A stretch of DNA of 64,000 bases from Escherichia coli (GTDB lineage: Bacteria; Pseudomonadota; Gammaproteobacteria; Enterobacterales; Enterobacteriaceae): NCBI RefSeq assembly GCF_050920415.1, contig NZ_CP169309.1, one strand, 5' to 3'. Position numbers and translations under genes: made by a program. Every line of letters starts with the position of its first letter. The stretch's first letter is position 1. The notes under the pieces are model-generated. The model was given only the letters and a program-made list of their open reading frames with translations, made no database searches and was not told the DNA's origin. Shown here piece after piece: positions 11,971 to 55,388 of this stretch.

Positions 11971-12759
11971 ATGCAAACGATTATCCGTGTCGAGAAGCTC
12001 GCCAAAACCTTCAATCAGCATCAGGCGCTGCATGCGGTTGATCTGAACATTCATCACGGTGAAATGGTGGCTCTGCTTGGGCCGTCCGGTTCCGGCAAAT
12101 CCACCCTTTTACGTCATTTAAGCGGTTTGATTACCGGCGATAAATCTGCCGGTAGCCATATCGAGCTGCTGGGCCGCACAGTCCAACGCGAAGGCCGCCT
12201 GGCCCGCGATATCCGCAAAAGCCGCGCCAACACCGGCTACATCTTCCAACAATTCAACCTGGTGAATCGCCTGAGCGTACTGGAGAACGTGCTGATTGGC
12301 GCGCTCGGCAGCACGCCATTCTGGCGCACCTGTTTTAGCTACTTCACCCGCGAGCAGAAACAGCGCGCGTTACAGGCGCTGACCCGCGTTGGCATGGTGC
12401 ACTTTGCCCATCAGCGCGTTTCCACCCTCTCCGGCGGACAGCAGCAGCGTGTGGCGATTGCCCGTGCGCTGATGCAGCAGGCGAAGGTGATTCTGGCCGA
12501 TGAACCCATCGCCTCGCTGGACCCGGAATCGGCGCGCATCGTGATGGACACCCTGCGCGACATTAACCAGAACGACGGCATTACCGTGGTCGTCACGCTG
12601 CATCAGGTGGATTACGCCCTGCGCTACTGCGAACGCATCGTCGCCCTGCGCCAGGGGCACGTCTTCTACGACGGCAGCAGCCAACAGTTTGATAACGAAC
12701 GTTTTGACCATCTCTACCGCAGCATTAACCGCGTCGAAGAGAACGCGAAAGCTGCCTGA
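11971..12759 (+). CDS. phnC: Phosphonate ABC transporter ATP-binding protein
   Basis: 262 aa; Walker [13 protein letters not shown] signature LSGGQQQR, Walker B ILADEP. Confidence 0.93.
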
Positions 12760-12783
12760 CATCCCCATCATTGAGGAAAACGA

Positions 12784-13800
12784 ATGAACGCTAAGATAAT
12801 TGCCTCGCTGGCCTTCACCAGCATGTTCAGCCTCAGCACCCTGTTCAGCCCGGCGCACGCCGAAGAGCAGGAAAAGGCGCTGAATTTCGGCATTATTTCA
12901 ACGGAATCACAGCAAAACCTGAAACCGCAATGGACGCCTTTCCTGCAAGATATGGAGAAGAAACTGGGCGTAAAGGTCAACGCCTTCTTTGCTCCGGACT
13001 ACGCGGGCATTATCCAGGGGATGCGCTTCAACAAAGTGGATATCGCCTGGTACGGCAACCTGTCGGCGATGGAAGCGGTGGATCGCGCCAACGGTCAGGT
13101 CTTCGCCCAGACGGTCGCGGCGGATGGATCGCCGGGTTACTGGAGCGTGTTGATCGTCAACAAAGATAGCCCGATCAACAACCTGAACGATCTGCTGGCC
13201 AAGCGTAAAGATCTCACCTTCGGCAATGGCGATCCTAACTCCACCTCTGGCTTCCTCGTCCCCGGCTACTACGTCTTCGCCAAAAACAATATCTCCGCCA
13301 GCGACTTCAAGCGCACCGTCAACGCCGGGCATGAAACCAACGCCCTCGCCGTCGCCAACAAGCAGGTGGATGTCGCCACCAACAACACTGAAAACCTCGA
13401 CAAGCTGAAAACCTCCGCGCCGGAGAAGCTGAAAGAACTGAAGGTGATCTGGAAATCGCCGCTGATCCCAGGCGATCCGATCGTCTGGCGCAAAAATCTG
13501 TCCGAAACCACCAAAGACAAGATCTACGACTTCTTTATGAACTACGGCAAAACGCCGGAAGAGAAAGCGGTGCTGGAACGCCTGGGCTGGGCGCCGTTCC
13601 GCGCCTCCAGCGACCTGCAACTGGTGCCAATTCGCCAGCTCGCACTGTTTAAAGAGATGCAAAGCGTGAAGGACAACAAAGGGCTGAACGAACAGGACAA
13701 GCTCGCGAAAACCACCGAGATACAGGCGCAACTGGATGACCTGGATCGCCTGAACAACGCGTTAAGCGCGATGAGTTCGGTGAGTAAAGCGGTGCAGTAA
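12784..13800 (+). CDS. phnD: Phosphonate ABC transporter periplasmic binding protein
   Basis: 338 aa with an N-terminal signal peptide (MNAKIIASLAFTSMFSLSTLFSPAHA). Confidence 0.92.
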   Translation: MNAKIIASLAFTSMFSLSTLFSPAHAEEQEKALNFGIISTESQQNLKPQWTPFLQDMEKKLGVKVNAFFAPDYAGIIQGMRFNKVDIAWYGNLSAMEAVDRANGQVFAQTVAADGSPGYWSVLIVNKDSPINNLNDLLAKRKDLTFGNGDPNSTSGFLVPGYYVFAKNNISASDFKRTVNAGHETNALAVANKQVDVATNNTENLDKLKTSAPEKLKELKVIWKSPLIPGDPIVWRKNLSETTKDKIYDFFMNYGKTPEEKAVLERLGWAPFRASSDLQLVPIRQLALFKEMQSVKDNKGLNEQDKLAKTTEIQAQLDDLDRLNNALSAMSSVSKAVQ

Positions 13801-13809
13801 TGTGCTCGA

Positions 13810-13912
13810 TCGGTCCCCTCTCCCTTGAGGGAGAGGGTTAGGGTGAGGGGGGAAATACGCACGCTGATGCCCTCACCCCGGCCCTCTCCCACAGGGAGAG
13901 GGAGAAAACATT
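13810..13912. repeat. GC-rich composite palindromic repeat (two ~40-bp imperfect palindromes), copy 1
   Basis: ggtcccctctcccttgagggagagggttagggtgagggg ... ccctcaccccggccctctcccacagggagagggagaaaac in the phnD-phnE spacer; closely related copy at 19165..19278. Confidence 0.7.
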
Positions 13913-13926
13913 AAACGGAGCCAAAC

Positions 13927-14706
13927 ATGCAAACCATCACCATCGCCCCACCCAAGCGCAGCTGGTTCTCGCTTCTGAGCTGGGCCATTGTTCTCGCCGT
14001 GCTGGTCGTCTCGTGGCAGGGCGCGGAAATGGCCCCGCTCACGCTGATTAAAGACGGCGGCAACATGGCGACGTTCGCCGCCGACTTCTTCCCGCCCGAT
14101 TTCAGCCAGTGGCAGGATTACCTCACCGAAATGGCCGTCACGCTGCAAATCGCCGTCTGGGGCACTGCGCTGGCAGTCGTTCTCTCCATCCCCTTCGGCC
14201 TGATGAGCGCCGAAAACCTGGTGCCGTGGTGGGTTTACCAGCCCGTTCGCCGCCTGATGGACGCCTGCCGCGCCATTAACGAGATGGTCTTCGCCATGCT
14301 GTTCGTGGTCGCCGTCGGTCTCGGTCCGTTCGCTGGCGTACTGGCGCTGTTTATCCACACCACCGGCGTGCTCTCCAAACTGCTTTCCGAAGCGGTGGAA
14401 GCGATTGAACCCGGCCCGGTGGAAGGCATTCGCGCCACCGGTGCCAATAAGCTCGAAGAGATCCTCTACGGCGTGCTGCCGCAGGTCATGCCGCTACTGA
14501 TTTCCTACTCACTCTATCGTTTCGAATCCAACGTGCGTTCCGCCACCGTTGTTGGCATGGTCGGCGCTGGCGGAATTGGCGTCACGCTGTGGGAAGCGAT
14601 TCGCGGTTTCCAGTTCCAGCAAACCTGCGCCCTGATGGTGCTGATTATCGTCACGGTCAGCCTGCTGGATTTCCTCTCTCAACGGTTGCGTAAGCACTTT
14701 ATCTGA
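13927..14706 (+). CDS. phnE: Phosphonate ABC transporter permease (intact reading frame)
   Basis: 259-aa uninterrupted ORF beginning [28 protein letters not shown] with permease topology; GGAG RBS 8 nt upstream. Confidence 0.88.
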
Positions 14707-14726
14707 TAAGCGAGGCATTGATATCT

Positions 14727-15452
14727 ATGCACTTGTCTACACCTCCGACCAGCTACCCAACACGCTATCAGGAGATAGCCGCAAAACTTGAGCAGGAGCT
14801 TCGTCAACACTACCGCTGCGGCGACTATCTTCCCGCCGAGCAGCAACTGGCAGCGCGCTTTGAGGTGAATCGCCACACCCTGCGCCGTGCCATCGACCAA
14901 CTGGTGGAAAAAGGCTGGGTACAGCGCCGTCAGGGCATCGGCGTACTGGTGCTGATGCGCCCGTTCGATTACCCGCTCAACGCCCAGGCGCGTTTTAGCC
15001 AGAACCTGCTGGATCAGGGTAGCCATCCCACCAGCGAAAAACTGCTGTCCGTGCTGCGCCCGGCCTCCGGTCACGTCGCTGACGCGCTGGGGATAACCGA
15101 GGGCGAGAACGTTATCCACCTGCGCACCCTGCGCCGGGTCAACGGCGTCGCGCTCTGTTTAATCGACCACTACTTTGCGGACCTCACTCTCTGGCCGACG
15201 CTGCAACGCTTCGACAGCGGCTCGCTGCACGATTTTTTGCACGAGCAAACGGGAATTGCGCTGCGCCGCAGCCAGACGCGGATCAGCGCCCGCCGCGCCC
15301 AGGCCAAAGAGTGCCAGCGTCTTGAAATTCCGAATATGTCGCCGCTGCTGTGCGTGCGCACCCTTAACCACCGTGACGGTGAAAGCAGCCCGGCGGAGTA
15401 CTCCGTCAGCCTGACGCGCGCCGACATGATTGAATTCACCATGGAGCACTGA
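14727..15452 (+). CDS. phnF: GntR-family repressor of the phn operon
   Basis: 241 aa from ATG (MHLSTPPTSYPTRYQEIAAKLEQ); N-terminal GntR HTH, UTRA-like C-terminus. Confidence 0.9.
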   Translation: MHLSTPPTSYPTRYQEIAAKLEQELRQHYRCGDYLPAEQQLAARFEVNRHTLRRAIDQLVEKGWVQRRQGIGVLVLMRPFDYPLNAQARFSQNLLDQGSHPTSEKLLSVLRPASGHVADALGITEGENVIHLRTLRRVNGVALCLIDHYFADLTLWPTLQRFDSGSLHDFLHEQTGIALRRSQTRISARRAQAKECQRLEIPNMSPLLCVRTLNHRDGESSPAEYSVSLTRADMIEFTMEH

Positions 15453-15905
15453 ATGCACGCAGATACCGCGACCCGCCAGCACTGGATGTCCGTGCTGGCG
15501 CACAGCCAACCGGCTGAACTGGCTAACCGCCTTAAAGCGCTAAACATCACCACCGACTATGACATTATCCGCGCCGCCGAAACCGGCCTGGTACAGATTC
15601 AGGCGCGAATGGGTGGCACCGGCGAACGCTTTTTTGCTGGCGACGCTACGCTCACCCGCGCCGCTGTACGCCTTACTGACGGCACGCTCGGCTACAGCTG
15701 GGTGCTGGGGCGCGACAAACAGCACGCCGAACGCTGCGCGCTGATTGACGCGCTGATGCAGCAATCTCGCCACTTTCAAAACTTATCAGAAACCCTTATT
15801 GCCCCGCTGGACGCTGACCGTATGGCACGCATTGCCGCACGCCAGGCCGAAGTGAACGCCAGTCGGGTCGACTTCTTTACGATGGTTCGCGGAGACAACG
15901 CATGA
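15453..15905 (+). CDS. phnG: C-P lyase core complex subunit PhnG
   Basis: 150 aa; position and sequence in the phnGHIJ block. Confidence 0.9.
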
Positions 15906-16486
15906 CCCTGGAAACCGCTTTTATGCTTCCCGTGCAGGATGCCCAGCACAGTTTTCGTCGCCTGTTAAAGGCAATGAGCGAGCCGGGCGTGATTGTCGCC
16001 CTGCATCAGCTCAAACGCGGCTGGCAGCCGCTGAATATCGCCACCACCAGCGTGCTGCTGACGCTGGCCGATAACGACACGCCGGTGTGGCTTTCCGCGC
16101 CATTAAGTAACGATATCGTCAGCCAGAGCCTGCGTTTTCATACCAACGCCCCGCTGGTCAATCAGCCGGAACAGGCGACCTTCGCAGTGACGGATGAGGC
16201 GATTGCCAGCGAGCAGCTCAACGCCCTTTCCACCGGCACCGCCGTTGCGCCGGAAGCCGGTGCGACGTTGATTTTACAGGTCACCAGCCTGAGCGGCGGA
16301 CGCATGCTGCGCCTCACCGGCGCGGGTATTGCCGAAGAACGGATGATCGCCCCGCAACTGCCGGAGTGCATTCTGCACGAACTCACCGAGCGCCCGCACC
16401 CGTTCCCGCTCGGCATCGACCTGATCCTGACCTGCGGCGAGCGCCTGCTGGCTATTCCGCGAACCACTCATGTGGAGGTGTGCTGA
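15902..16486 (+). CDS. phnH: C-P lyase core complex subunit PhnH
   Basis: 194 aa; overlaps the phnG stop (ATGA). Confidence 0.9.
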
Positions 16487-17550
16487 TGTACGTTGCCGTG
16501 AAAGGGGGCGAGAAGGCGATCGACGCCGCCCACGCCCTGCAAGAGAGCCGACGCCGGGTCGATACCGATTTGCCTGAACTGAGCGTCGCCCAGATTGAAC
16601 AGCAGCTTAATCTCGCGGTGGATCGCGTGATGACCGAAGGCGGCATTGCCGACCGCGAACTGGCCGCACTGGCGCTGAAACAGGCCAGTGGCGATAACGT
16701 TGAAGCAATTTTCCTGCTGCGCGCCTACCGCACGACGCTGGCAAAACTGGCGGTAAGCGAGCCGCTCGACACCACCGAGATGCGTCTCGAACGCCGTATC
16801 TCCGCCGTTTATAAAGACATTCCTGGCGGCCAGCTGCTTGGCCCGACCTACGACTACACCCATCGCCTGCTCGATTTCACCCTGCTGGCGAATGGCGAAG
16901 CGCCGACGCTGACCACCACCGACAGCGAGCAAGCCCCATCGCCGCACGTTTTCAGCCTGCTGGCGCGTCAGGGGCTGGCGAAGTTTGAAGAGGATAGCGG
17001 CGCACAGCCGGATGACATCACCCGTACACCGCCGGTTTACCCTTGCTCTCGCGCCTCCCGCCTGCAACAGCTCATGCGCGGCGACGAAGGCTACTTGCTG
17101 GCGCTGGCCTACTCCACCCAGCGTGGTTACGGACGCAATCACCCGTTCGCAGGCGAAATCCGCAGTGGCTATATCGACGTGTCTATTGTGCCGGAAGAGC
17201 TGGGATTTGCGGTGAACGTCGGTGAACTGCTGATGACCGAGTGTGAAATGGTTAACGGTTTTATCGACCAGCCGGATGAGCCGCCGCACTTCACGCGCGG
17301 CTACGGGCTGGTGTTTGGCATGAGCGAGCGCAAAGCGATGGCAATGGCGCTGGTTGACCGCGCTCTACAAGCCCCGGAGTACGGCGAGCACGCGACAGGC
17401 CCGGCGCAGGATGAAGAGTTCGTGCTGGCGCATGCCGACAACGTCGAAGCCGCAGGCTTTGTCTCGCACCTCAAACTCCCGCACTACGTCGATTTCCAGG
17501 CCGAGCTGGAGCTACTCAAACGTCTGCAACAGGAGCAGAACCATGGCTAA
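16486..17550 (+). CDS. phnI: C-P lyase subunit PhnI (ribosyl-triphosphate-forming nucleosidase)
   Basis: 354 aa from [13 protein letters not shown]; start overlaps the phnH stop by 1 nt (TGATG); the longer upstream track extension was rejected. Confidence 0.9.
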   Translation: MYVAVKGGEKAIDAAHALQESRRRVDTDLPELSVAQIEQQLNLAVDRVMTEGGIADRELAALALKQASGDNVEAIFLLRAYRTTLAKLAVSEPLDTTEMRLERRISAVYKDIPGGQLLGPTYDYTHRLLDFTLLANGEAPTLTTTDSEQAPSPHVFSLLARQGLAKFEEDSGAQPDDITRTPPVYPCSRASRLQQLMRGDEGYLLALAYSTQRGYGRNHPFAGEIRSGYIDVSIVPEELGFAVNVGELLMTECEMVNGFIDQPDEPPHFTRGYGLVFGMSERKAMAMALVDRALQAPEYGEHATGPAQDEEFVLAHADNVEAAGFVSHLKLPHYVDFQAELELLKRLQQEQNHG

Positions 17551-18388
17551 TCTGAGCGGCTACAACTTTGCGTACCTCGACGAGCAGACCAAACGTATGA
17601 TCCGCCGCGCCATCTTAAAAGCGGTGGCGATCCCCGGTTATCAGGTGCCGTTTGGCGGGCGCGAGATGCCGATGCCATACGGCTGGGGAACCGGCGGCAT
17701 ACAGCTTACCGCCAGTGTGATTGGCGAAAGCGACGTGTTGAAGGTGATTGACCAGGGCGCGGATGACACCACCAACGCCGTATCAATTCGCAACTTTTTC
17801 AAGCGCGTGACCGGGGTAAACACCACTGAACGTACGGATGATGCGACGCTTATCCAGACGCGCCACCGCATCCCCGAAACGCCGCTGACCGAAGATCAGA
17901 TCATTATCTTCCAGGTGCCGATCCCGGAACCGCTGCGCTTTATCGAGCCGCGCGAAACGGAGACCCGCACCATGCACGCGCTGGAGGAGTACGGCGTGAT
18001 GCAGGTGAAACTGTATGAAGATATCGCCCGCTTCGGTCATATCGCCACCACCTACGCCTATCCGGTGAAGGTGAACGGACGCTACGTCATGGACCCATCG
18101 CCGATCCCGAAATTTGATAACCCGAAAATGGACATGATGCCCGCCCTGCAACTGTTCGGCGCGGGGCGTGAGAAGCGTATTTATGCGGTGCCGCCGTTTA
18201 CCCGCGTGGAAAGCCTCGATTTCGACGATCATCCGTTCACCGTTCAGCAGTGGGATGAACCCTGCGCCATCTGCGGATCGACCCACAGCTATCTCGATGA
18301 AGTGGTGCTGGATGACGCCGGAAACCGCATGTTTGTCTGCTCCGATACCGATTATTGCCGCCAACAGAGCGAGGCGAGAAGCCAATGA
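17543..18388 (+). CDS. phnJ: C-P lyase radical-SAM subunit PhnJ
   Basis: 281 aa from MANLSGYNFAYLDEQTKRMIRRAILKAVAIPGYQVPFGGREMPMPYGWGTGG; C-terminal Cys cluster CAICGSTHSYLDE...CSDTDYC. Confidence 0.92.
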   Translation: MANLSGYNFAYLDEQTKRMIRRAILKAVAIPGYQVPFGGREMPMPYGWGTGGIQLTASVIGESDVLKVIDQGADDTTNAVSIRNFFKRVTGVNTTERTDDATLIQTRHRIPETPLTEDQIIIFQVPIPEPLRFIEPRETETRTMHALEEYGVMQVKLYEDIARFGHIATTYAYPVKVNGRYVMDPSPIPKFDNPKMDMMPALQLFGAGREKRIYAVPPFTRVESLDFDDHPFTVQQWDEPCAICGSTHSYLDEVVLDDAGNRMFVCSDTDYCRQQSEARSQ

Positions 18389-19143
18389 ATCAACCGTTAC
18401 TTTCGGTCAATAACCTGACCCACCTTTACGCGCCGGGCAAAGGCTTCAGCGATGTCTCTTTTGATTTATGGCCGGGGGAAGTGCTGGGCATTGTCGGGGA
18501 ATCCGGTTCCGGGAAGACCACGCTGCTGAAATCAATCTCCGCCCGTCTGACACCGCAACAGGGGGAGATTCACTATGAAAACCGTTCCCTCTATGGCATG
18601 AGCGAGGCCGACCGCCGTCGCCTGCTGCGCACCGAATGGGGCGTGGTGCATCAGCATCCGCTCGACGGCCTGCGCCGTCAGGTGTCAGCAGGCGGCAATA
18701 TCGGCGAACGGCTGATGGCGACCGGGGCGCGTCATTACGGCGATATTCGCGCCACCGCGCAGAAGTGGCTGGAGGAGGTGGAGATTCCCTCCAACCGTAT
18801 CGACGACCTGCCGACCACTTTTTCCGGCGGTATGCAGCAGCGTTTGCAGATTGCCCGCAACCTGGTGACGCATCCGAAGCTGGTGTTTATGGATGAACCG
18901 ACCGGCGGGCTGGATGTATCGGTACAGGCGCGCCTGCTCGATCTGCTGCGCGGTCTGGTGGTGGAGCTGAATCTGGCGGTGGTGATTGTCACCCATGATT
19001 TAGGCGTCGCCCGCCTGCTGGCGGACCGTTTGCTGGTGATGAAGCAGGGGCAGGTGGTGGAGAGTGGGTTAACCGACCGCGTACTCGACGACCCGCATCA
19101 TCCGTATACCCAGTTGCTGGTGTCATCGGTTTTGCAGAATTGA
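18385..19143 (+). CDS. phnK: C-P lyase associated ABC-type ATPase PhnK
   Basis: 252 aa from MNQPLLSVNNLTHLY; Walker A GESGSGKTT, signature FSGGMQQR. Confidence 0.92.
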   Translation: MNQPLLSVNNLTHLYAPGKGFSDVSFDLWPGEVLGIVGESGSGKTTLLKSISARLTPQQGEIHYENRSLYGMSEADRRRLLRTEWGVVHQHPLDGLRRQVSAGGNIGERLMATGARHYGDIRATAQKWLEEVEIPSNRIDDLPTTFSGGMQQRLQIARNLVTHPKLVFMDEPTGGLDVSVQARLLDLLRGLVVELNLAVVIVTHDLGVARLLADRLLVMKQGQVVESGLTDRVLDDPHHPYTQLLVSSVLQN

Positions 19144-19164
19144 GTTGCAACACTTTGCGCACTG

Positions 19165-19278
19165 ATCCCCTCACCCCGGCCCTCTCCCGGAGGGAGAGGG
19201 AGAAAACCGGCGCAATATTCAACACCGTGCACAAGCGGTCCCCTCGCCCCTTTGGGGAGAGGGTTAGGGTGAGGGGCA
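19165..19278. repeat. GC-rich composite palindromic repeat, copy 2 (inverted relative to copy 1)
   Basis: cccctcaccccggccctctcccggagggagagggagaaaacc ... ggtcccctcgcccctttggggagagggttagggtgagggg in the phnK-phnL spacer. Confidence 0.7.
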
Positions 19279-19320
19279 ATGTGCGCACCGCTCCCAAACA
19301 TGCGAACCACGAGGCGAAAA

Positions 19321-20001
19321 ATGATTAACGTACAAAACGTCAGTAAAACCTTCATCCTGCACCAGCAAAACGGCGTGCGCCTGCCCGTCTTACAACGCGC
19401 CTCGCTCACCGTCAACGCGGGCGAATGCGTGGTGCTCCACGGTCACTCCGGCAGCGGCAAATCAACTCTGCTACGCTCGCTGTACGCCAACTATCTGCCC
19501 GACGAAGGGCAAATCCAGATCAAACACGGTGACGAATGGGTAGACCTGGTCACCGCGCCAACGCGCAAAGTGGTGGAAATCCGCAAAACCACTGTCGGCT
19601 GGGTAAGCCAGTTTCTGCGCGTCATCCCGCGTATTTCGGCACTGGAAGTGGTGATGCAGCCGCTGCTCGATACCGGCGTTTCGCGTGATGCCTGCGCCGC
19701 TAAAGCCGCGCGTCTGCTCACCCGCCTGAACGTGCCGGAACGTCTGTGGCACCTGGCGCCATCGACCTTCTCCGGCGGCGAACAGCAGCGCGTCAACATC
19801 GCGCGCGGCTTTATCATCGATTACCCCATTCTGCTGCTCGACGAACCTACTGCCTCGCTGGACGCCAAAAACAGCGCCGCGGTGGTGGAACTGATCCGCG
19901 AAGCTAAAACCCGCGGCGCAGCCATCGTCGGCATCTTCCACGACGAAGCCGTACGCAATGACGTCGCCGACCGCCTGCACCCAATGGGAGCCTCTGCATG
20001 A
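19321..20001 (+). CDS. phnL: C-P lyase associated ABC-type ATPase PhnL
   Basis: 226 aa from [25 protein letters not shown]; Walker [10 protein letters not shown], signature FSGGEQQR. Confidence 0.9.
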
Positions 20002-21134
20002 TTATCAATAACGTCAAACTGGTGCTGGAAAACGAAGTGGTACACGGTTCGCTGGAGGTGCAGGACGGCGAAATTCGCGCCTTTGCCGAAAGCCAGAGCC
20101 GCCTGCCAGAAGCGATGGACGGCGAAGGTGGCTGGCTGCTGCCGGGACTGATTGAGCTGCATACCGATAATCTGGATAAATTCTTCACCCCGCGCCCGAA
20201 AGTGGACTGGCCCGCCCACTCGGCGATGAGCAGCCACGATGCGCTGATGGTGGCGAGCGGCATCACCACCGTGCTGGACGCCGTGGCGATTGGCGACGTG
20301 CGCGACGGCGGCGATCGGCTGGAGAATCTGGAAAAGATGATCAACGCCATCGAAGAGACGCAGAAACGCGGCGTCAACCGCGCCGAGCACCGCCTGCACC
20401 TGCGCTGCGAACTGCCGCATCACACTACGCTGCCGCTGTTTGAAAAACTGGTGCAGCGCGAGCCGGTCACGCTGGTGTCGCTAATGGACCACTCACCGGG
20501 CCAGCGCCAGTTCGCCAATCGCGAGAAGTATCGCGAATATTACCAGGGCAAATACTCGCTCACCGATGCGCAGATGCAGCAGTACGAAGAGGAACAACTG
20601 GCGCTTGCCGCACGCTGGTCGCAGCCGAATCGCGAAACCATCGCCGCAATGTGCCGCGCGCGACAAATTGCCCTCGCCAGCCACGATGACGCCACGCACG
20701 CGCACGTTGCCGAATCCCACCAGCTTGGCAGCGTAATCGCCGAATTTCCCACCACGTTCGAAGCGGCGGAAGCTTCGCGCAAGCATGGCATGAATGTATT
20801 GATGGGCGCGCCGAATATTGTGCGCGGCGGTTCGCACTCCGGCAACGTGGCGGCCAGTGAACTGGCACAGCTTGGTCTGCTGGATATCCTCTCTTCCGAC
20901 TACTACCCCGCCAGCCTGCTCGATGCGGCATTCCGCGTCGCCGATGACGAGAGCAACCGCTTTACGCTGCCGCAGGCGGTGAAGCTGGTGACTAAAAATC
21001 CGGCGCAGGCGCTTAATCTTCAGGATCGCGGGGTGATTGGCGAGGGCAAACGCGCCGACCTGGTGCTGGCGCATCGCAAGGGCAACCACATTCATATCGA
21101 TCACGTCTGGCGTCAGGGTAAAAGGGTGTTCTGA
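19998..21134 (+). CDS. phnM: Amidohydrolase-family PhnM (ribosyl-triphosphate diphosphohydrolase)
   Basis: 378 aa; overlaps the phnL stop (ATGA). Confidence 0.9.
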
Positions 21135-21691
21135 TGACGGGAAAACTGATTTGGTTAATGGGGGCCTCTGGCTCCGGAAAAGACAGTCTGTTGACGGAAC
21201 TCCGCCAGCGGGAACAAACTCAGCTACTGGTAGCGCATCGCTACATCACGCGCGCCGCCAGCGCCGGAAGTGAAAACCATATCGCCCTGAGCGAGCAGGA
21301 GTTTTTTACCCGCGCGGGGCAGAACCTTCTGGCCTTAAGCTGGCACGCCAACGGCCTGTATTATGGCATCGGCGTCGAGATTGACCTCTGGCTGCACGCT
21401 GGATTTGACGTGGTGGTCAACGGCTCACGCGCCCATCTACCGCAGGCGCGGGCGCGCTATCAATCGGCGCTGCTGCCCGTTTGTTTACAGGTTTCGCCAG
21501 AGATCCTGCGCCAGCGCCTGGAAAACCGTGGTCGTGAAAATGCCAGTGAAATTAACGCCCGGCTGGCGCGCGCTGCCCGCTATACTCCTCAGGATTGTCT
21601 TACGCTCAATAATGACGGCAGCCTGCGCCAGTCGGTCGACAAGCTGCTGACGCTGATTGATCTGAAGGAGAAACACCATGCCTGCTTGTGA
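21134..21691 (+). CDS. phnN: Ribose 1,5-bisphosphate phosphokinase PhnN
   Basis: 185 aa; P-loop [12 protein letters not shown]; guanylate-kinase-like. Confidence 0.9.
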
Positions 21692-22112
21692 GCTTCGCCC
21701 GGCTACGCAGTACGACACCGACGCAGTTTACGCGCTGATTTGTGAGCTAAAACAGGCGGAGTTTGACCACCACGCGTTTCGCGTGGGCTTTAACGCCAAT
21801 CTGCGCGACCCGAACATGCGCTACCATCTGGCGCTGCTGGATGGCGAAGTTGTCGGCATGATCGGCCTGCATTTGCAGTTTCATCTGCATCATGTCAACT
21901 GGATCGGCGAAATTCAGGAACTGGTGGTGATGCCGCAGGCGCGCGGTCTGAACGTCGGCAGTAAATTACTGGCATGGGCCGAAGAAGAAGCCCGCCAGGC
22001 CGGGGCCGAAATGACCGAGCTTTCCACCAACGTCAAGCGCCACGACGCGCACCGTTTCTATCTGCGCGAAGGCTACGAGCAGAGCCACTTCCGCTTCACC
22101 AAGGCGCTGTAA
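21678..22112 (+). CDS. phnO: Aminoalkylphosphonate N-acetyltransferase PhnO (GNAT)
   Basis: 144 aa; GNAT-like acetyl-CoA region; overlaps phnN by 14 nt. Confidence 0.88.
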
Positions 22113-22113
22113 C

Positions 22114-22872
22114 ATGAGCCTGACCCTCACACTTACTGGCACTGGCGGCGCACAGGGTGTTCCCGCATGGGGCTGTGAGTGCGCGGCCTGCGCCAGAGCG
22201 CGGCGCTCACCGCAGTATCGCCGCCAGCCATGCAGCGGCGTCGTGAAGTTTAACGACGCGATCACCCTGATCGACGCCGGGCTGCACGATCTCGCCGATC
22301 GCTGGTCGCCCGGATCGTTCCAGCAGTTTTTGCTGACGCACTACCATATGGATCACGTGCAGGGGCTGTTTCCGCTGCGCTGGGGCGTGGGCGATTCGAT
22401 CCCGGTCTACGGCCCGCCGGATGAACAGGGCTGCGACGATCTGTTTAAACATCCGGGCCTGCTTGATTTCAGCCACACGGTGGAGCCATTTGTGGTGTTT
22501 GATTTGCAGGGATTGCAGGTGACGCCGCTACCGCTTAACCATTCGAAACTCACTTTCGGCTATTTACTGGAAACGGCGCACAATCGGGTGGCGTGGCTGT
22601 CTGACACCGCGGGCCTGCCAGAAAACACGCTGAAATTTTTACTCAATAATCATCCGCAGGTGATGGTGATTGATTGCAGCCATCCGCCGCGCGAGGATGT
22701 GCCGCGTAATCACTGCGATTTAAACACCGTGCTGGCGCTGAATGAGATTATCCGTTCACCGCGCGTGATTCTGACGCACATCAGCCACCAGTTTGATGCG
22801 TGGCTGATGGAAAATACGCTGCCATCGGGGGTTGAGGCGGGGTTTGATGGGATGGAGATTGGGGTGGAGTGA
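22114..22872 (+). CDS. phnP: Phosphoribosyl cyclic phosphodiesterase PhnP (metallo-beta-lactamase fold)
   Basis: 252 aa; HxHxDH motif ([11 protein letters not shown]). Confidence 0.9.
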
Positions 22873-46780: not shown

Positions 46781-46791
46781 TCTCTCCCCTT

Positions 46792-46811
46792 CCCCGGTCG
46801 TCTGACCGGGG
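46792..46811 (+). terminator. Hairpin after actP (possible terminator)
   Basis: ccccggtcgtctgaccgggg inverted repeat 12 nt after the actP stop; lacks a clear T-tract. Confidence 0.35.
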
Positions 46812-46958
46812 AATACTCTTCCTCTCCAATATGCATCATCTTTTCCCATAATATTAAACAAATAAACTCATTAAAAAAATGAGCGATTTTTGACAGTCGT
46901 AGAAAATGATAATGCAGAGAATATGCCTTTTCTTTCTTGTTAATTATAAGGATATTTT

Positions 46959-48251
46959 ATGCGCTATAATGGTTTAAATAATATGTTTTTCCCTCTTTGC
47001 CTGATTAACGATAACCACCCTGTCACAAGTCCATCACATACAAAGGAAACAAAATCAGATAATTATAGCAAACATCATAAAGACACGTTAATTGACAATA
47101 AAGCCCTCTCTCTTTTCAAAATGGATGATCATGAAAAAGTGATAGGCTTGATTCAGAAAATGAAAAGAACTTATGATACTTTACCATCAGGAAAAATCAC
47201 TAAAGAAACTGACAGGAAAATTCATAAATATTTTATAGATATAGCTTTATATGCAAGTAATAAATATGACGATAGAATTACGAGAAGAGTTTACCTTAAT
47301 AAAGATAAGGAAGTGTCAATTAAGGTAGTGTATTTTATAAATAATGTCACTGTCCATAATAATACTATCGAAATCCCACAGACAGTAAATGGTGGTTACG
47401 ATTTTTCACACCTTAGCCTGAAAGGTATCAGGATTAAAGATGAAGATTTATCCAATTCGGATTTTGCAGGTTGCAGACTACAAAATGCTATTTTCCAGGG
47501 CTGTAATATGTATCAAACGAATTTTAATTTTGCCATAATGGAAAAAATAATTTTTGATAATTGTATTCTCGATGACTCAAATTTCGCTCAGATAAAAATG
47601 ACTGACGGAACTCTAAATGCATGCTCCGCTATGCATGTTGAATTCTTCAATGCAACAATGATTAGAGCTAAAATTAAAAATACCTTCCTTGACTATTCAA
47701 ATTTTTATATGGCGTACATGGCTGAGGTGAATCTTTATAAAGTAATAGCGCCATATGTTAATTTATTTAGAGCCGACCTTAGTTTCTCTAAACTCGATTT
47801 AATTAACTTTGAACATGCTAATCTTTCTCGCGTCAACCTGAACAAAGCAACCCTCCAGAATATAAACTTAATTAATAGCAAACTCTTTTTTACGCGGCTG
47901 ACAAATACGTTCCTCGAAATGGTTATATGTACCGATTCTAATATGGCTAATGCTAATTTTAATAATGCCAATTTAAGCAATTGCCATTTCAACTGTTCTA
48001 TTTTAACAAAAGCCTGGATGTTTAATACCCGTTTCTATCGGGTTAATTTCGATGAGGCTATCGTCCAGGGAATGGGCATATCCATTCTCCGTGGGGAGGA
48101 TAATATTCCCATTAATAGTGATATCCTGATAACACTACAGCAACTCTTTGAAGAGGATTGTGCCACTCATACTGGCATGTCACAAACTGAGCATAATATT
48201 CAGGAAGTGTCTATGAATACCACTGAAGATACTATGCAATACGCAGATTGA
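46959..48251 (+). CDS. yjcF: Pentapeptide-repeat protein YjcF (AT-rich gene)
   Basis: 430 aa; long series of A(D/N)LSxxxFxxAxL-type pentapeptide repeats between about residues 150 and 350; visibly AT-rich codon usage compared with neighbours. Confidence 0.82.
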   Translation: MRYNGLNNMFFPLCLINDNHPVTSPSHTKETKSDNYSKHHKDTLIDNKALSLFKMDDHEKVIGLIQKMKRTYDTLPSGKITKETDRKIHKYFIDIALYASNKYDDRITRRVYLNKDKEVSIKVVYFINNVTVHNNTIEIPQTVNGGYDFSHLSLKGIRIKDEDLSNSDFAGCRLQNAIFQGCNMYQTNFNFAIMEKIIFDNCILDDSNFAQIKMTDGTLNACSAMHVEFFNATMIRAKIKNTFLDYSNFYMAYMAEVNLYKVIAPYVNLFRADLSFSKLDLINFEHANLSRVNLNKATLQNINLINSKLFFTRLTNTFLEMVICTDSNMANANFNNANLSNCHFNCSILTKAWMFNTRFYRVNFDEAIVQGMGISILRGEDNIPINSDILITLQQLFEEDCATHTGMSQTEHNIQEVSMNTTEDTMQYAD

Positions 48252-48340
48252 GATTAAGCCGAAGAATAGCCAATGAATTGACTTTAAAAGAGAGATACTC
48301 ACGGACTTCTGACTTATTTATTTTAGAATCATGAATGTTA

Positions 48341-48398
48341 GCCCGAGGTAATCTGAAAAAGGTGCAAAAGATTGCACCTTTTTCAGATTACCTCGGGC
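48341..48398. terminator. Perfect 27-bp-arm palindrome with 4-nt loop; bidirectional terminator between convergent yjcF and yjcE
   Basis: gcccgaggtaatctgaaaaaggtgcaa-aaga-ttgcacctttttcagattacctcgggc; the inner stem ggtgcaa/ttgcacc is flanked by A5 and T5 runs on both strands. Confidence 0.6.
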
Positions 48399-48418
48399 CT
48401 GGTTACGTCGCTTTCGGC

Positions 48419-50068
48419 TTACTGATTTTCCTCAATCAACAACGCTTCAAGCAAATCGAGATCGTGCAATAATTTTTGCAGCGTTTCATTGCTGATCTCC
48501 CGCGTGGCGCGCAGGTGGTACAGTTCAGCACGTTCAGAACGCAATGCCGCCAGACGGAAGCGACGCTCAAGGTTCTCTTCCTGCACGGAACTTTCAACGT
48601 CGTTACGTCCATCGGCGCGACGACGCAGGTTACCAATGACGCGAGAACTGACCTCCGTGAGCAGCTGGTTATCGATATTCTCTTCGGTATCCGCCGCCAG
48701 ACGCTCCTCCATTTTCTGGATTGCCACAATCGCCACTTCTGCCGTTGCCGCTCGCGCAATACGCTCCTCTTTCAACTGCTGCGAATGGTCTGCGACTTCA
48801 ATGTGTTGCAGCAAAATGGGCAACATCACCACGCCGACAAACAGCGAGAAGAGAATGACGCCAGCCGCCAGGAACACCAACTCATAGCGCGCCGGGAAGA
48901 CGTTGCCATCCGGCAAGAGCAGCGGGATAGAGAGCACACCGGCTAGTGTGATCGCCCCACGCACCCCGGCAAAAGACGCAATCAGGATTTCTCGTGTGGT
49001 CCACGAACCAAACTCCATCGGCTTCTTCTTCAGAAAACGGTTGCTGAACTTTTTCATCGTCCACAGCCAGCCAAAACGGACCAGCATCAGCGCCGCATAA
49101 ATCAGAATGATATCGGTAAACAGCATCCAGATTTCGACGTTAGGGTCGATTTCTGCCGCCATCAGCGACGTCTCCAGAATACCCGGCAACTGCAGACCTA
49201 ACAGCAGGAATACCATGCCGTTGAAGACAAATTCCAGCATCGCCCAGGTGCTGTTTGCGCGCAGGCGCATCGCCAGCGGCGCACGGCGCATTACACCGGA
49301 GCGGGTGATGGTCATCCCGGCGGCAACCGCAGCAAGAATACCGGAAACGCCAATATGTTCGGCAATCAGATAAGAAGCGAATGGCAGCAGGAACAGCAGT
49401 ACAATCTGCGTCGCGGGTTCATCACCGCCCCAGCGGCTGAGGAATCGCAGCGAACGACCATACAGCCAGCTCACCACAAAACCGGCGAGAATACCGCCTA
49501 TTGCCACTTTCATAAATTCCACCGTTGCACCGCCGACGGTGAAGATCATCGTCCCCATCGCCACTGCCACAGCAAACTTTAATGACACCAGGCCGGAGGC
49601 GTCATTCATCAACGCTTCGCCCTGCAAAATACCCATGATTTTTTTCGGGATGCGCCCTTCGCCAACAATACCGGAAAGCGCCACAGCATCGGTCGGAGAA
49701 AGCACCGCCGCCAGCGCAAAGGCGGGAATCAGCGGAATGCCCGGCACCACCCAGTAAATAAGGAAGCCAATGCCAACCACGGTGACCACCACCAGCGCCA
49801 GCGCGAGGCCGAAAATCTCCCGACCATGTTCGAGAAATTCACGGGTCGGCGTTTTCCAGCCATCTGCGAACAGCAACGGCGGGATAAACAAGACTAAAAA
49901 GAGTTCAGGATCAAACTCCACATGCAAACCAAACGTCGGCCACGCCAGTAGCGCACCGATGGCGATTTGCATAAGCGGAAGCGGGATCTGAAAGGGCATG
50001 ACACGAGTGACCACCCCGGACAGCGAGACCACGAGGGTCATTATCAGTATGGTGAAGAAGATTTCCAT
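48419..50068 (-). CDS. yjcE: Putative Na+(K+)/H+ exchanger (CPA1 family)
   Basis: 549 aa; about 12 TM helices plus a charged C-terminal domain. Confidence 0.88.
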   Translation of the reverse strand: MEIFFTILIMTLVVSLSGVVTRVMPFQIPLPLMQIAIGALLAWPTFGLHVEFDPELFLVLFIPPLLFADGWKTPTREFLEHGREIFGLALALVVVTVVGIGFLIYWVVPGIPLIPAFALAAVLSPTDAVALSGIVGEGRIPKKIMGILQGEALMNDASGLVSLKFAVAVAMGTMIFTVGGATVEFMKVAIGGILAGFVVSWLYGRSLRFLSRWGGDEPATQIVLLFLLPFASYLIAEHIGVSGILAAVAAGMTITRSGVMRRAPLAMRLRANSTWAMLEFVFNGMVFLLLGLQLPGILETSLMAAEIDPNVEIWMLFTDIILIYAALMLVRFGWLWTMKKFSNRFLKKKPMEFGSWTTREILIASFAGVRGAITLAGVLSIPLLLPDGNVFPARYELVFLAAGVILFSLFVGVVMLPILLQHIEVADHSQQLKEERIARAATAEVAIVAIQKMEERLAADTEENIDNQLLTEVSSRVIGNLRRRADGRNDVESSVQEENLERRFRLAALRSERAELYHLRATREISNETLQKLLHDLDLLEALLIEENQ

Positions 50069-52990: not shown

Positions 52991-54577
52991 TTATTGCCCG
53001 CGCGTTAACTCCTGCGCGGGTGATTGCTCCATCCATTGCATGAACACCTGCGGTGGCATCGCCTTAGCAAAGAACCATCCCTGGCAATAGCGCACGCCGC
53101 GTTTACGCAACCAGTTAACCTGATCCTCAGTTTCTACCCCTTCTGCAATCGTTTTCAGCCCCAGGCTGTGCGCCAGCTCGATGATGTGTTCCGCAATCAA
53201 ATGACTGGTTTTATGGGTGGTCAGCGTCTCAACAAACGATTTATCGATTTTCAAAATATCGACATTCAATGATTTAAGGTTATGCAAGTTAGAGTAGCCA
53301 ATACCAAAATCATCAATTGCCACTTCGTAACCAGCCTGGCGGAAAGCCAGAATAATTGGTGTCATTTTGTCGACATCAAGAAATGCATGTTCAGTCACTT
53401 CAAATTTAATTTGCTGTGGACGCACCGCGTATTGCTCTGTTTTCTGATTGGTTCGCGCTATCAACCGTGACGTATGAAAATCGGAGGCCGACAGGTTAAT
53501 AGAAACATAGCGATCGGCATGTGTTGCCAGGTACGCGCCCAGATCGCGGAAGACATTATCAATAACATAATCAGTTACCTGTCCGATCATTCTCTCCTTT
53601 TCTGCCAGCGGAATAAACTCTGCCGGATTCATTACTTGCCCCTGCTCACCAGGCCAACGTAACAATGCTTCAGCGCCGATACATTTTTCTGTTTTGATAT
53701 CGATTATTGGCTGGTAATAAAGGCAAAGTTGATGTTTTTCGAGGGCGCGTTGCAATTTGCGTTTGGGAGACAAATAGTTTTGTCGAATACGTAGCCAGAG
53801 TAATAACAGAACAAGACTCCCCAAAATGCCGGCGGGTAACGCAAAAATAAGATGATTATAAAAATGTGCTATAAGACGTTGATATGAAGTCGCAACAATG
53901 GCTGCAATTGGGCGTTTTGTCGAATAAACTGTCGCATATAAATAGCCATTTCTTTGTACGGTTAAATCATTCAAATGAATCAGCGGAGAAAACGTTGCTG
54001 CCGAGGCCTCGTTGCTTAACGAGAAAAAGGTTTTCGTTACCGTATCATACACACCCCATTGCAATGTCGGATCATCAGACATCACTTCACTCCAGAATAG
54101 AGGGTTGATGACCGCCACATAATTTCCCCGCTGCATATAGGTCATTTTATAGCCAGAGAAAAAAGGCGTATCGCGGTAATAATAGATAGAAACGTTAGGT
54201 TCACGCTTATAATCGGCCGGTGCAATCGTATAACCGTTTACAGGCGCTATCAGCGATGAGCATAAAAAATGGTTATCACGGGCATAGATCAATTCATTAA
54301 TATAAAGATAGCCACGAATAATATTCAACATTCGCTTTTGATGGGCCGGAGTGCAAACTTGCCCCTGATAGCGTTCTGCTGCATCGCTCACTAAATCTGC
54401 CTGGCGAATGACCAGCTCGGATTTATCCAGCGCCAGCTGAGCAAAAGTTTGGAGCTGACTATTCACTTCTGATTTTGCCCAAAGGAAGGCAATCCATAGC
54501 GACAGAATGATGGGAAAGAGAACTAAAAAGATAATGCCCGGCAACGCCAGTAATTGGTGTCGTGCATGATGACTCAT
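52991..54577 (-). CDS. pdeC: Membrane-anchored c-di-GMP phosphodiesterase (CSS-motif sensor plus EAL domain)
   Basis: 528 aa from [14 protein letters not shown]; two TM helices flanking a periplasmic domain, C-terminal EAL domain ([20 protein letters not shown]). Confidence 0.88.
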
Positions 54578-55007
54578 TGCTATCAATTTCCTGCCTGTTT
54601 ATACCCGGTCATTGCAAGGCGAGAACCCTGGTTATCGACGTCTTTAGATAAATCTTACGGTATAAATAGCACTTTTGCCTGATTTGAAATTGATACCTTT
54701 TTAATCGTCACCTGAATAAAAATAATTCATTGATATTCAAAAATTAATTTCCTGCAGGAATGCAGAGGCGGCGGGAAGATATGCCCTTAATGCCGCTGAA
54801 AAAACACATAATCTGTACGGCAATAAAAGTCACGGCCTAATCTGGCTAACAAACAATCAATTGTGATATAGTTCACAAAATTAATGAAACAAACAGAGTG
54901 TTTCTTTTTTGTGTTTTGCAAGCCCCGCGATAGCCAGATTGTATCACGCCTCCCGTGAACAACGCCGCGCTGTCCAGGGCATCGGCTCTTTTCAGAGGAA
55001 TTGTTTG

Positions 55008-55289
55008 ATGGCTACCCTCACCACTGGCGTGGTTCTTCTTCGCTGGCAACTTCTTAGTGCCGTAATGATGTTTCTGGCCAGCACGCTCAACATCCGTTTT
55101 CGTCGGTCTGATTATGTCGGGCTTGCAGTGATCAGCAGCGGTCTGGGCGTGGTTTCCGCCTGTTGGTTCGCAATGGGGTTGCTTGGCATCACAATGGCGG
55201 ACATCACCGCCATCTGGCACAACATCGAGTCGGTGATGATAGAAGAGATGAATCAGACACCGCCACAATGGCCAATGATTTTGACTTGA
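55008..55289 (+). CDS. yjcB: Small membrane protein YjcB
   Basis: 93 aa from MATLTTGVVLLRWQLLSAVMMFLASTLN; the upstream track extension was trimmed. Confidence 0.75.
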   Translation: MATLTTGVVLLRWQLLSAVMMFLASTLNIRFRRSDYVGLAVISSGLGVVSACWFAMGLLGITMADITAIWHNIESVMIEEMNQTPPQWPMILT

Positions 55290-55295
55290 TATGTA

Positions 55296-55326
55296 GAAGC
55301 CTCCATAACGGAGGCTTCTTTTTTTA
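55296..55326 (+). terminator. Intrinsic terminator after yjcB
   Basis: gaagcctcc-ataac-ggaggcttc followed by a run of 9 T. Confidence 0.8.
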
Positions 55327-55388
55327 TGGCTGGCAGATGCTTTAATCATCCACCTTAAAACAATATAACCTATTGGTTTAATGACAAA

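Follow-up and report, generated by a model that had tools for sequence, protein, structure and literature searches.

An AT-rich Escherichia coli gene, yjcF, followed by a terminator-like hairpin probably perfected by quasi-palindrome template switching

The stretch of E. coli DNA analyzed here (64,000 nt in total; hereafter the window) contains an AT-rich gene that is already catalogued as yjcF, with the RefSeq name espX5. It lies between two convergent genes, actP and yjcE, in a slot whose content varies, and is followed by a perfect palindrome situated 20 nt from the yjcE stop codon. The features of the region are organized as follows.

46781..46958, + strand: actP–yjcF intergenic region, the AT-rich upstream and putative promoter region of yjcF, assigned from sequence
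46792–46811: putative actP-proximal hairpin, CCCCGGTC-gtct-GACCGGGG, assigned from sequence
46959..48251, + strand: yjcF (espX5), an open reading frame of 430 aa encoding a pentapeptide-repeat protein
48252..48340, + strand: spacer between the yjcF stop codon and the palindrome
48341..48398: perfect palindrome with 27-nt arms (48341–48367 and 48372–48398, 100% complementary) and a 4-nt loop
48341–48355: left outer arm, an inverted copy of the right outer arm
48356..48383: core, AAAAA-GGTGCAA-aaga-TTGCACC-TTTTT, having terminator form on either strand (for yjcF on + and for yjcE on −)
48384..48398: right outer arm, CAGATTACCTCGGGC, the existing yjcE-side flank
48419..50068, − strand: yjcE, a Na+/H+ antiporter gene convergent with yjcF

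A survey of 5426 complete E. coli genomes finds yjcF in 4117 (76%). Alternative contents of the slot are an lrgB-lrgA-LysR cassette, no insert at all, or a yjcF truncated by IS1. The actP-proximal hairpin is also found at the lrgAB-type junction, and a 14-nt segment of the spacer (48298–48311) is restricted to window-type and N3-type alleles. A ChIP study uses yjcF as an established example of H-NS binding (bioRxiv 10.1101/559138), and a 'promoter island' at yjcF/actP is listed in PMC3661553.

Among the 45 window ORFs of at least 150 aa, yjcF has both the lowest GC content (33.5%, vs 44.6–62.2% in the others) and the lowest GC3 (32.5%), and a 400-nt GC profile drops from ~0.55 to 0.30–0.37 over the gene. 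Its codon adaptation, computed with the remaining window ORFs as reference, is likewise the window minimum (0.537, vs a mean of 0.682 for the other ORFs; z = −2.7), although narrowly so, as one small ORF has a value of 0.538. The description of yjcF in an earlier note as AT-rich relative to its neighbors is borne out. Full-length relatives of YjcF are found only in E. coli, with at least 84% identity; the next matches are cyanobacterial repeat proteins that are ~25% identical and align over the repeats only. An exhaustive protein search was dominated by giant repeat proteins, and among the matches listed those covering the N-terminus are short, nearly identical fragments; a peptide-pattern scan of genome contigs gave 24 pattern matches, none of which is a relative. 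One candidate for a divergent outgroup allele (P0003, 84% identity) was rejected, as it proved to be a K-12-type allele that has lost 30 aa in frame. The yjcF gene has a dS comparable to those of its flanking genes, a dN/dS of 0.18–0.48 (vs ≤0.03 in actP and yjcE), and a C-terminal tail that evolves near-neutrally. Purifying selection on yjcF is weak, with a dN/dS below 1 implying some retained function. The old horizontal acquisition proposed earlier agrees with the E. coli-only orthologues, the presence/absence slot, and a dS similar to that of the flanks, and yjcF is best explained as a gene that was acquired horizontally long ago and is restricted to E. coli.

The Pfam pentapeptide families PF00805 and PF13599 match YjcF residues 148–372 (E down to 4e-7), and a hydrophobic residue occupies the center of 44 of 46 pentads in a single phase. 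The tandem pentapeptide repeats recognized earlier are thus present, although they number ~45 by this pentad phase count rather than about 40. AlphaFold2 prediction from the single sequence has a pLDDT of 31, whereas a model built with a hand-built 24-sequence alignment of repeat segments reaches 86–98 over residues 150–370, with strands at a 20-residue period. The top Foldseek PDB matches of this model are HetL, QnrB1, AlbG, and MfpA (E 1e-11 to 1e-6). The expectation of a quadrilateral β-helix is therefore backed by model and structural matches alike, and the repeats are predicted to form a right-handed helix of this class with four repeats per coil and ~11 coils. The N-terminal 56 residues are predicted to be disordered, and the N-terminal region is best explained as a disordered or orphan segment ahead of the β-helix.

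The fold had also been taken to suggest DNA mimicry or a role as a secreted effector, but the analysis found no sign of either mimicry or translocation for YjcF. The DNA mimics MfpA, Qnr, and AlbG share its fold class and are among its top structural matches, but they have ~8–9 coils and form C-terminal dimers, whereas YjcF has ~11 coils and a 145-aa N-terminal extension. The NCBIfam scores of YjcF are 16–33 bits here, against cut-offs of 240–490, and no link between YjcF and gyrase was found.

A true effector of the LEE type III secretion system, acting in host cells by way of its β-helix, is something that YjcF probably is not, even though RefSeq names it espX5, a T3SS effector, and its N-terminus is predicted to be disordered. 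In its layout, with a pentapeptide β-helix behind an unstructured N-terminus, YjcF resembles NleL/EspX7 and SopA minus the ligase domain (PMC3013003). An unstructured N-terminus with a ~200-residue pentapeptide β-helix is a shared property of EspX7 (NleL), SopA, PipB, PipB2, and YjcF, and the genes of this group, like yjcF, are AT-rich and horizontally acquired. However, the NCBIfam matches are all far under cut-off, including the weak ones to PipB2 (38.5 bits vs 354) and PipB (38.7 vs 274) and that to a SopA/NleL-type model (17.5 vs 500). YjcF is 26% identical over 85 aa, within the repeats only, to K-12 YjbI, which we take to be EspX4; RefSeq annotates YjbI as a frameshifted SopA family protein. 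Similarity to EspX, SopA, and PipB is confined to the repeats, and neither the HECT-like ligase domain nor the C-terminal motif of the PipB2 type was found in YjcF; searches with NCBIfam models, the YjbI alignment, and the N-terminal 145 aa gave no homology to validated effectors outside the generic repeats. The nearly neutral C-terminal tail also argues against an effector role. Moreover, yjcF belongs to the backbone of strains that are LEE-negative, and its occurrence among the complete genomes is not tied to LEE carriage. It is present in K-12 and B-derived strains, which to our knowledge lack the LEE system. The only EspX members in the effector table of PMC2323221 are EspX2 and EspX7, and a search of the literature, apart from the first survey by Tobe et al. 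(2006), found no report of EspX5 translocation. PADLOC gave no matches. The effector label of yjcF is one of family resemblance only, yet the designation 'T3SS effector EspX5' has spread through RefSeq and virulence-gene screens. As the gene is found in the majority of commensal and laboratory E. coli, counting it as a virulence factor is unsafe.

An inverted-repeat search confirms the exact 27-nt arms and 4-nt loop of the palindrome downstream of yjcF. It far exceeds every other hairpin of the 64 kb in length (the second-longest perfect one has 14-nt arms), and its predicted RNA fold is very stable on both strands (−52.8 kcal/mol, z = −9.5 vs shuffles). No further copies with up to three mismatches are present in the window (0 expected by chance), and there is one palindrome site per genome in 4118 E. 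coli genomes; this single-copy status in both searches supports the earlier statement that it is not obviously a REP element. Each genome gave two 'places' in the search, most simply because a palindrome matches both strands. Rfam searches at permissive thresholds gave nothing at gathering score (the best match being mir-9457 with 40.9 bits vs 90). The sub-threshold Rfam matches are to generic long microRNA-precursor hairpins.

The palindrome is most likely a two-way transcription stop common to yjcF and yjcE, as judged from its sequence. The stem GGTGCAA-4 nt-TTGCACC is followed by an 8-nt tail, UUUUUCAG, on both strands, in line with the bidirectional terminator suggested in the earlier note. 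Alleles without yjcF have a ~10–14 bp stem with an A-tract and a T-tract in the same place. The empty-site strain 14EC007 contains CAGATTAAGTCGGGC at the position of the right arm (13 of 15 identical) and lacks the left counterpart, and empty-site alleles have A4–A5 tracts instead of TTAAA. In the common K-12 form the U-tract in the yjcE direction is broken (UUUAACAG), and conversion to AA extends it from 3 to 5. A consensus scanner for promoters and terminators detected no terminator, nor were promoter-like sites in excess; the terminator was missed presumably because the longest stem is taken, and this runs through the T-tract. Term-seq tables (Adams et al., PMC7815308), which cover K-12 only and genes whose expression there is uncertain, contain no 3′ end for yjcE, yjcF, or actP. 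Rho termination regions at 4281854(+) and 4281402(−) are located just past the hairpin in K-12 (PMC7815308), such that the K-12 form may leak.

The perfect palindrome occurs in 18 of 4118 carriers (~0.4%), and ~99% carry an imperfect form. With a 101-nt query, 16 genomes match at 100%, 23 at 98%, and ~3500 at 96%; strains EC43 and N96 are also perfect, in addition to the 16 identical genomes. Four sites are mismatched in most E. coli (48348, 48352, 48356, and 48357), all of them in the left arm, and K-12, O157, O104:H4, DA33137, and N3 have a common left arm, GCCCGAGCTA(A/G)CCTGTTAAAGG, with at least four mismatches. In the 98% class (n = 23), all four members examined carry TT>AA only. This change is found in both K-12-like and B1-like backgrounds, in strains differing over 2.9 kb from their mismatched relatives by 8–17 nt (K-12-like) or 10–27 nt (B1-like). 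In EC43 (a single assembly, GCF_051912625.1) the perfect palindrome lies in an otherwise ordinary B1 haplotype: there are 39 nt differences from O104:H4 in 6 kb, and in the 1.6 kb between 47353 and 48968 the two differ only at the four arm positions, within 10 nt. A window-type donor tract in EC43 would have to fit 48321–48436.

All changes that gain pairing fall in the left arm, where they reproduce the complement of the right one. DA33137 and N3 have right-arm changes that lack a compensating partner, and across six distinct variants a compensatory double change is seen in none of the 27 pairs. A metagenome scan for the hairpin core yielded 77 contigs that could be used; each has four or five mismatches, and neither a new variant nor the perfect form is among them. 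The window itself belongs to an allele group of 18 genomes (at least 98.8% identical) that is 5–6% diverged from others in actP, yjcF, and yjcE; it constitutes a deep branch with a dS of 0.14–0.22 to all others in actP and yjcE, and the four differences in the 58 nt of its palindrome equal the background divergence. No outgroup species with yjcF was found, and a degenerate hairpin scan gave 10 chance matches in unrelated taxa, none in Escherichia. The tree is accordingly unrooted, and majority rule is uninformative on polarity for a lineage that branches as deeply as that of the window. The perfect pairing over 27 bp is not a designed, conserved trait.

We interpret the region as an old AT-rich E. 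coli gene with an intrinsic terminator hairpin that was perfected by quasi-palindrome template switching, a reading to which we assign a probability of about 0.7. In yjcF-bearing alleles the outer arms have the pattern of a short stem lengthened outwards through inverted copying of 15 nt from the yjcE-side flank, and such copying could have generated the extended stem, which is a quasi-palindrome in ~99% of carriers, usually with four left-arm mismatches. During replication the nascent strand may fold back at the hairpin and copy its own first-made arm, so as to make the left arm match the right. This would be template switching of the Ripley/Lovett type, and would have taken place in a few lineages including that of the window. 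Switching would proceed from the loop outwards, such that the only intermediate seen is one with the innermost mismatch corrected. EC43 and the TT>AA strains both carry, in an otherwise unchanged haplotype, a cluster of one-arm changes that each produce the complement of the opposite arm, the pattern by which quasi-palindrome conversion is recognized. Template switching makes E. coli quasi-palindromes perfect or more perfect (PMC7202029), and has been proposed to act genome-wide on proteobacterial inverted repeats (PMC5941160). The extra stem length would need no function of its own, although as a side effect conversion would restore the 5-U tract in the yjcE direction and make the terminator form symmetric again. 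The perfect form in the rare lineage of the window probably arose when one arm was copied from the other in replication, and is best explained as a mutational by-product, rather than as a processing site or an RNA element with a special role.

Other accounts of the perfect form are less probable. It is possible, if tentative, that the window lineage retains an original state that was perfect by construction at the inverted duplication, with the main lineage later gaining the four left-arm substitutions and switching explaining only EC43 and TT>AA. The 5–6% divergence of the window group across all three genes and the background-like number of differences in the palindrome would fit, and the A4–A5 tracts of empty-site alleles raise the prospect that AA is the older state at 48356–48357. 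Yet retention calls for three or four separate substitutions, one of them a tandem AA>TT, that all fell in the same arm and spared the other; N3 has the 14-nt spacer segment in common with the window type and nevertheless a mismatched arm, and with demonstrably derived conversions elsewhere, one more conversion is the simpler reading. We consider it unlikely that the perfect EC43 arm and TT>AA in two backgrounds were introduced by very short patches of homologous recombination. Recombination is frequent in E. coli, the region is mosaic (N3, for instance, has a DA33137-like gene but a window-like spacer), and the nearest EC43 markers permit a tract of up to 116 nt, but the ends of an EC43 patch are confined to 48321–48347 and 48358–48436. 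Derivation of TT>AA from a perfect donor would place the left end within 3 nt between 48352 and 48356, and such donors make up only ~0.4% of carriers and 0 of 77 metagenome contigs.

Selection for the long stem as an RNA element, either an RNase III site, a stabilizer of yjcE/yjcF mRNA 3′ ends, or a small RNA, is very improbable. A perfect duplex of 27 bp suffices for RNase III, the predicted hairpin is very stable on both strands, and conversion extends the yjcE-direction U-tract; however, the processing site or RNA element envisaged earlier is at odds with the mismatches in ~99% of carriers and the lack of covariation in all 27 pairs. In addition, no Rfam family is matched at threshold, an RNA ended at the U-tract excludes the outer right arm, and the K-12 Term-seq tables list no 3′ end at the hairpin. 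The palindrome coincides with the right boundary of a presence/absence cassette, which might point to a mobile-element end, an insertion scar, a repeat-family member, or a protein operator tied to yjcF insertion, but this is scarcely credible, as it is single-copy in each genome, its right arm is flank already present in the empty-site strain, and the left cassette edge has no matching structure. There is no integrase or transposase nearby, except for a secondary IS1 in one strain.

Perfection by template switching would make the palindrome a natural example of a known mutation mechanism in an otherwise ordinary locus, and a clean one, as three states (four mismatches, two, and perfect) are present among more than 4000 genomes. 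It would support the view that mutation bias, and not selection, keeps bacterial inverted repeats perfect, and it cautions that an unusually long perfect palindrome need not mean a special RNA element. A more speculative extension, to which we give little credence, is that the yjcF–yjcE terminator is a recurring natural template-switch hotspot whose conversions are non-neutral and tune convergent transcription reversibly. If so, TT>AA or full conversion would shift yjcE termination from a leaky Rho-dependent type (K-12) to an intrinsic one, and antisense read-through into silenced yjcF would be shut off.

The locus has features in common with known types of element. As in bidirectional intrinsic terminators, there is a stem with G+C, a 4-nt loop, and A- and T-tracts between convergent stop codons; however, the stem runs 15 bp past the A/T tracts, and terminated transcripts would be without that part. 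Like REP and BIME elements, the palindrome is extragenic and lies in the 3′ intergenic space of a convergent gene pair, but it is single-copy and has no family members. Further parallels are the known quasi-palindrome hotspots, which include T4 rIIB and yeast CYC1 (Ripley 1982), and E. coli thyA and the lacZ QP5/QP6 reporters (PMC7202029). As at these sites, the changes are clustered multi-base substitutions in one arm, either partial (inner mismatch) or complete, and the overwritten arm would be the second-made arm on the inferred leading strand. Whereas the known hotspots were found in selection assays, the variation described here is natural polymorphism in thousands of wild genomes, with its pattern pointing to the same mechanism.

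The yjcF ORF (46959..48251, + strand; 430 aa) has a GC content of 33.5% and a GC3 of 32.5%, compared with GC contents of 44.6–62.2% among the 44 remaining window ORFs that reach 150 aa, and sliding GC values fall from ~0.55 in actP to 0.30–0.37 in yjcF before returning to 0.54–0.57 in yjcE. Its codon adaptation, calculated with the other window ORFs as the reference, is the lowest in the window (0.537; z = -2.7). The gene is AT-rich relative to its neighbours, as the earlier note proposed. An ORF at 54873-55349 has a codon adaptation nearly as low (0.538), one at 52991-54577 has a GC content that is low for the window (44.6%), and a run of co-oriented ORFs at 11971-22872 has unusually high GC (58–62%) and GC3 (67–78%) relative to the rest of the window.

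Pfam pentapeptide families cover YjcF residues 148–372, and, read in one phase, 44 of the 46 pentads are hydrophobic at their centre residue, corresponding to ~45 repeats in 11 coils of four; the repeats are in tandem as described earlier, with the count of about 40 revised upwards. An AlphaFold2 model built from a 24-row alignment of repeat segments has pLDDT values of 86–98 over residues 150–370 with one strand per 20 residues; residues 1–56 are disordered in the model, and residues 57–145 and the tail (373–430) are modelled with low confidence. Foldseek comparison of the model with the PDB reveals HetL, designed pentapeptide solenoids, QnrB1, AlbG, and MfpA, in agreement with the expected beta-helix. 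The YjcF allele P0003 (CP011342; L012 3001-4203) has lost 30 aa in frame, precisely six pentapeptides or one and a half coils, the outcome that recombination between repeats would be expected to give.

yjcF is present in 4117 of 5426 complete E. coli genomes. Full-length YjcF relatives among 5.8 billion proteins are E. coli clusters with at least 84% identity, and the next matches are cyanobacterial repeat proteins (~25% identity) aligned over the repeat region only; in an exhaustive protein search the N-terminal 145 residues matched only short near-identical fragments. Between-allele dN/dS is 0.18–0.48 in yjcF (0.5–0.95 in the C-terminal tail) and ≤0.03 in actP and yjcE. The yjcF dS (0.09–0.14) is of the same order as in the flanks, and yjcF has thus been resident at the locus since before these lineages split.

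The K-12 orthologue is named in RefSeq 'espX5, T3SS effector pentapeptide repeat protein EspX5', and more diverged alleles including the window type are named only 'yjcF, pentapeptide repeat-containing protein'. The gene is kept in K-12 and B-derived strains, which to our knowledge lack the LEE secretion system. Similarity to K-12 YjbI, which we take to be EspX4 and which is a frameshifted 'SopA family protein' in RefSeq, is confined to 26% identity over 85 repeat residues. An NCBIfam scan gave HetL, PipB2, PipB, Qnr, and SopA/NleL-type matches all far under the cut-offs, PADLOC gave no match to YjcF, and a literature search found no evidence for EspX5 translocation. A table of EHEC effectors names only EspX2 and EspX7 among EspX proteins (PMC2323221). 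EspX7/NleL contains ~169 unstructured residues, a pentapeptide beta-helix (170–370), and a HECT-like ligase domain (PMC3013003); YjcF shares the unstructured N-terminus and the beta-helix but lacks the ligase domain. One study takes yjcF as an established H-NS-bound site (bioRxiv 10.1101/559138), and a 'promoter island' is listed at yjcF/actP (PMC3661553). We read YjcF as an accessory protein that is under weak constraint, largely silenced, and unlikely to be an effector; yjcF is an already known gene to which the effector label has probably been over-applied.

The actP–yjcE junction has several alternative states across E. coli:

Window 46959..48251, + strand: yjcF
L011 4315-6395 (TUM13881), equivalent to window 46781-48418: lrgB-lrgA-LysR cassette, replacing yjcF and with a different terminator
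82-nt spacer in L010 (SX4) and L002 (14EC007): empty
L009 2284-2981 (O9:H10 strain): IS1, replacing most of yjcF

The presence of the lrgB-lrgA-LysR cassette in the yjcF position identifies the slot as a replacement hotspot; the cassette terminator in TUM13881 is GGTTGGCGGGC-tc-GCCCGCCAACC. The last ~35 nt of yjcF and an intact quasi-palindrome remain beside IS1 in the O9:H10 strain. The actP and yjcE genes flanking the empty slot in 14EC007 share only ~89–90% identity with their counterparts in essentially every other E. coli, which suggests import of this segment from another Escherichia species. In SX4 the 3′ end of yjcE diverges sharply at the slot edge, with five synonymous differences from other strains in the last six codons and an identical protein (L010 2861-2880; window 48419-48438). 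Another hairpin, shorter than the palindrome (CCCCGGTC-gtct-GACCGGGG; 46792-46811), lies 12 nt past the actP stop codon with no T-tract following; the lrgAB-type junction has it too (L011 4289-4308), and in SX4 it is degenerate. A 14-nt segment (CTCACGGACTTCTG; 48298-48311) between yjcF and the palindrome is only in window-type and N3-type alleles, and strain N3 joins it to a gene like that of strain DA33137, so that the region is mosaic.

The palindrome at 48341..48398 is perfect, with 27-nt arms (48341-48367 and 48372-48398) and a 4-nt loop, exactly as described earlier. No second copy was found across the window, consistent with the earlier view that it is not a REP element, and Rfam has no family for the hairpin. 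It far exceeds other window hairpins in length, the next perfect one having 14-nt arms, and the RNA fold is -52.8 kcal/mol (z = -9.5). The inner 28 nt (48356-48383; AAAAA-GGTGCAA-aaga-TTGCACC-TTTTT) provide on either strand a G+C-containing stem, a 4-nt loop, and a UUUUUCAG tail. Situated between the stop codons of the convergent yjcF and yjcE genes, this core has the form of a bidirectional intrinsic terminator, one of the roles suggested earlier. Strains without yjcF have a shorter hairpin at the same position (SX4, cggTAAAAAGGTGCgatgtacTGCACCTTTTTAccg; 14EC007, TAAAAGGTGCGAtttaTCGCACCTTTTT) with U-rich tails in both directions.

In 14EC007 the T-tract is followed by CAGATTAAGTCGGGC, 13/15 identical to the window right outer arm CAGATTACCTCGGGC (we estimate a chance match in exact register at ~1e-6), and the complementary left-side sequence is absent from 14EC007. 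The right outer arm thus belonged to the flank beforehand, and the left one (48341-48355) is its inverted copy. The outer stem shows no sign of selection; transcripts ending at the U-tract would lack the outer right arm.

A left arm of GCCCGAGCTA(A/G)CCTGTTAAAGGTGCAA, with at least four mismatches to the right arm (48348, 48352, and 48356-48357), is common to K-12, O157:H7, O104:H4, DA33137, and N3; the last two have further, uncompensated right-arm changes. A 101-nt query of E. coli genomes identified 16 identical to the window, 23 at 98%, ~3500 at 96% (K-12 type), and 515 at 90–95%. The palindrome is also perfect in strains EC43 and N96, and R32 has one new mismatch. The 98% class has only the change nearest the loop, TT>AA at 48356-48357, in all four genomes inspected. 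Among 77 usable metagenome contigs, 71 are of K-12 type and six of DA33137 type. The window allele group contains 18 genomes at ≥98.8% (MFDS1022581 matches best, with 100% identity over 46781-48420) and differs from all others by 5–6% in yjcF and 4–5% in actP and yjcE (dS 0.14–0.22).

In the yjcE direction, the U-tract is interrupted by the K-12-type arm (UUUAACAG) but reads UUUUUCAG in TT>AA and perfect alleles, a difference with a possible consequence for yjcE. In MG1655, Rho termination regions lie just past the hairpin on both strands, with Rho scores of 6.7 at 4281854(+), antisense to yjcF, and 5.4 at 4281402(-), antisense to yjcE, and no Term-seq 3′ end is listed at the hairpin (Adams et al., PMC7815308). 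These regions, which bear only indirectly on the terminator, would fit either transcription leaking past the K-12 form or Rho acting to silence spurious transcription of AT-rich DNA.

The EC43 haplotype is of B1 type, 39 nt from O104:H4 in 6 kb, and from 47353 to 48968 the four arm positions are the sole differences; it differs from the window by 317 nt. TT>AA occurs in both a K-12-like background (LR-06, 8 nt from K-12 over 2.9 kb) and a B1-like background (3R, 10 nt from O104:H4), K-12 and O104:H4 being 75 nt apart in the same comparison. Because these alleles are nested within mismatched haplotypes, and the mismatched arm is common to all deep lineages except the window's, the restoring alleles are derived. 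Recombination over short patches could account for EC43 or for how TT>AA spread, but only if its end-points were improbably placed; a window-type donor tract for EC43 would have to fit within 48321-48436. No exact match to the EC43 version was found in other genomes. For the window lineage itself, perfection may have been retained from the original duplication rather than regained, a doubtful but not negligible prospect, as its four differences in 58 nt equal background divergence; yjcF was not found in other species and the allele tree is unrooted.

All restoring changes are in the left arm and equal the complement of the right arm, with no changes on both sides of a pair (0/27 pairs, six distinct variants). 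This one-arm pattern is, from the sequences compared, the signature of quasi-palindrome template switching, in which the nascent strand would fold back at the hairpin and copy its own first-made arm. If the inner 10 bp, which pair perfectly, primed the fold-back, the innermost mismatch would be fixed first, and such loop-outward correction matches the sole intermediate seen, TT>AA; copying continued into the flank would yield the 15-bp extension. GC skew on the + strand is negative in this region of the window, suggesting that leading-strand synthesis would run right to left and that the left arm, synthesised second, would be the one overwritten. This fits the strand bias at E. coli reporters, most stimulating compounds having been active only with the leading-strand reporter (PMC7202029).

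The palindrome is best explained as a single-copy terminator hairpin made unusually long and perfect by a known replication-based mutation mechanism. In E. coli, template switching is established from thyA and from lacZ reporters, where it makes a repeat 'perfect or more perfect' (PMC7202029), and it has been put forward as the process that keeps inverted repeats perfect across Proteobacteria (PMC5941160); to these the palindrome adds a documented natural three-state example rather than a new kind of element.
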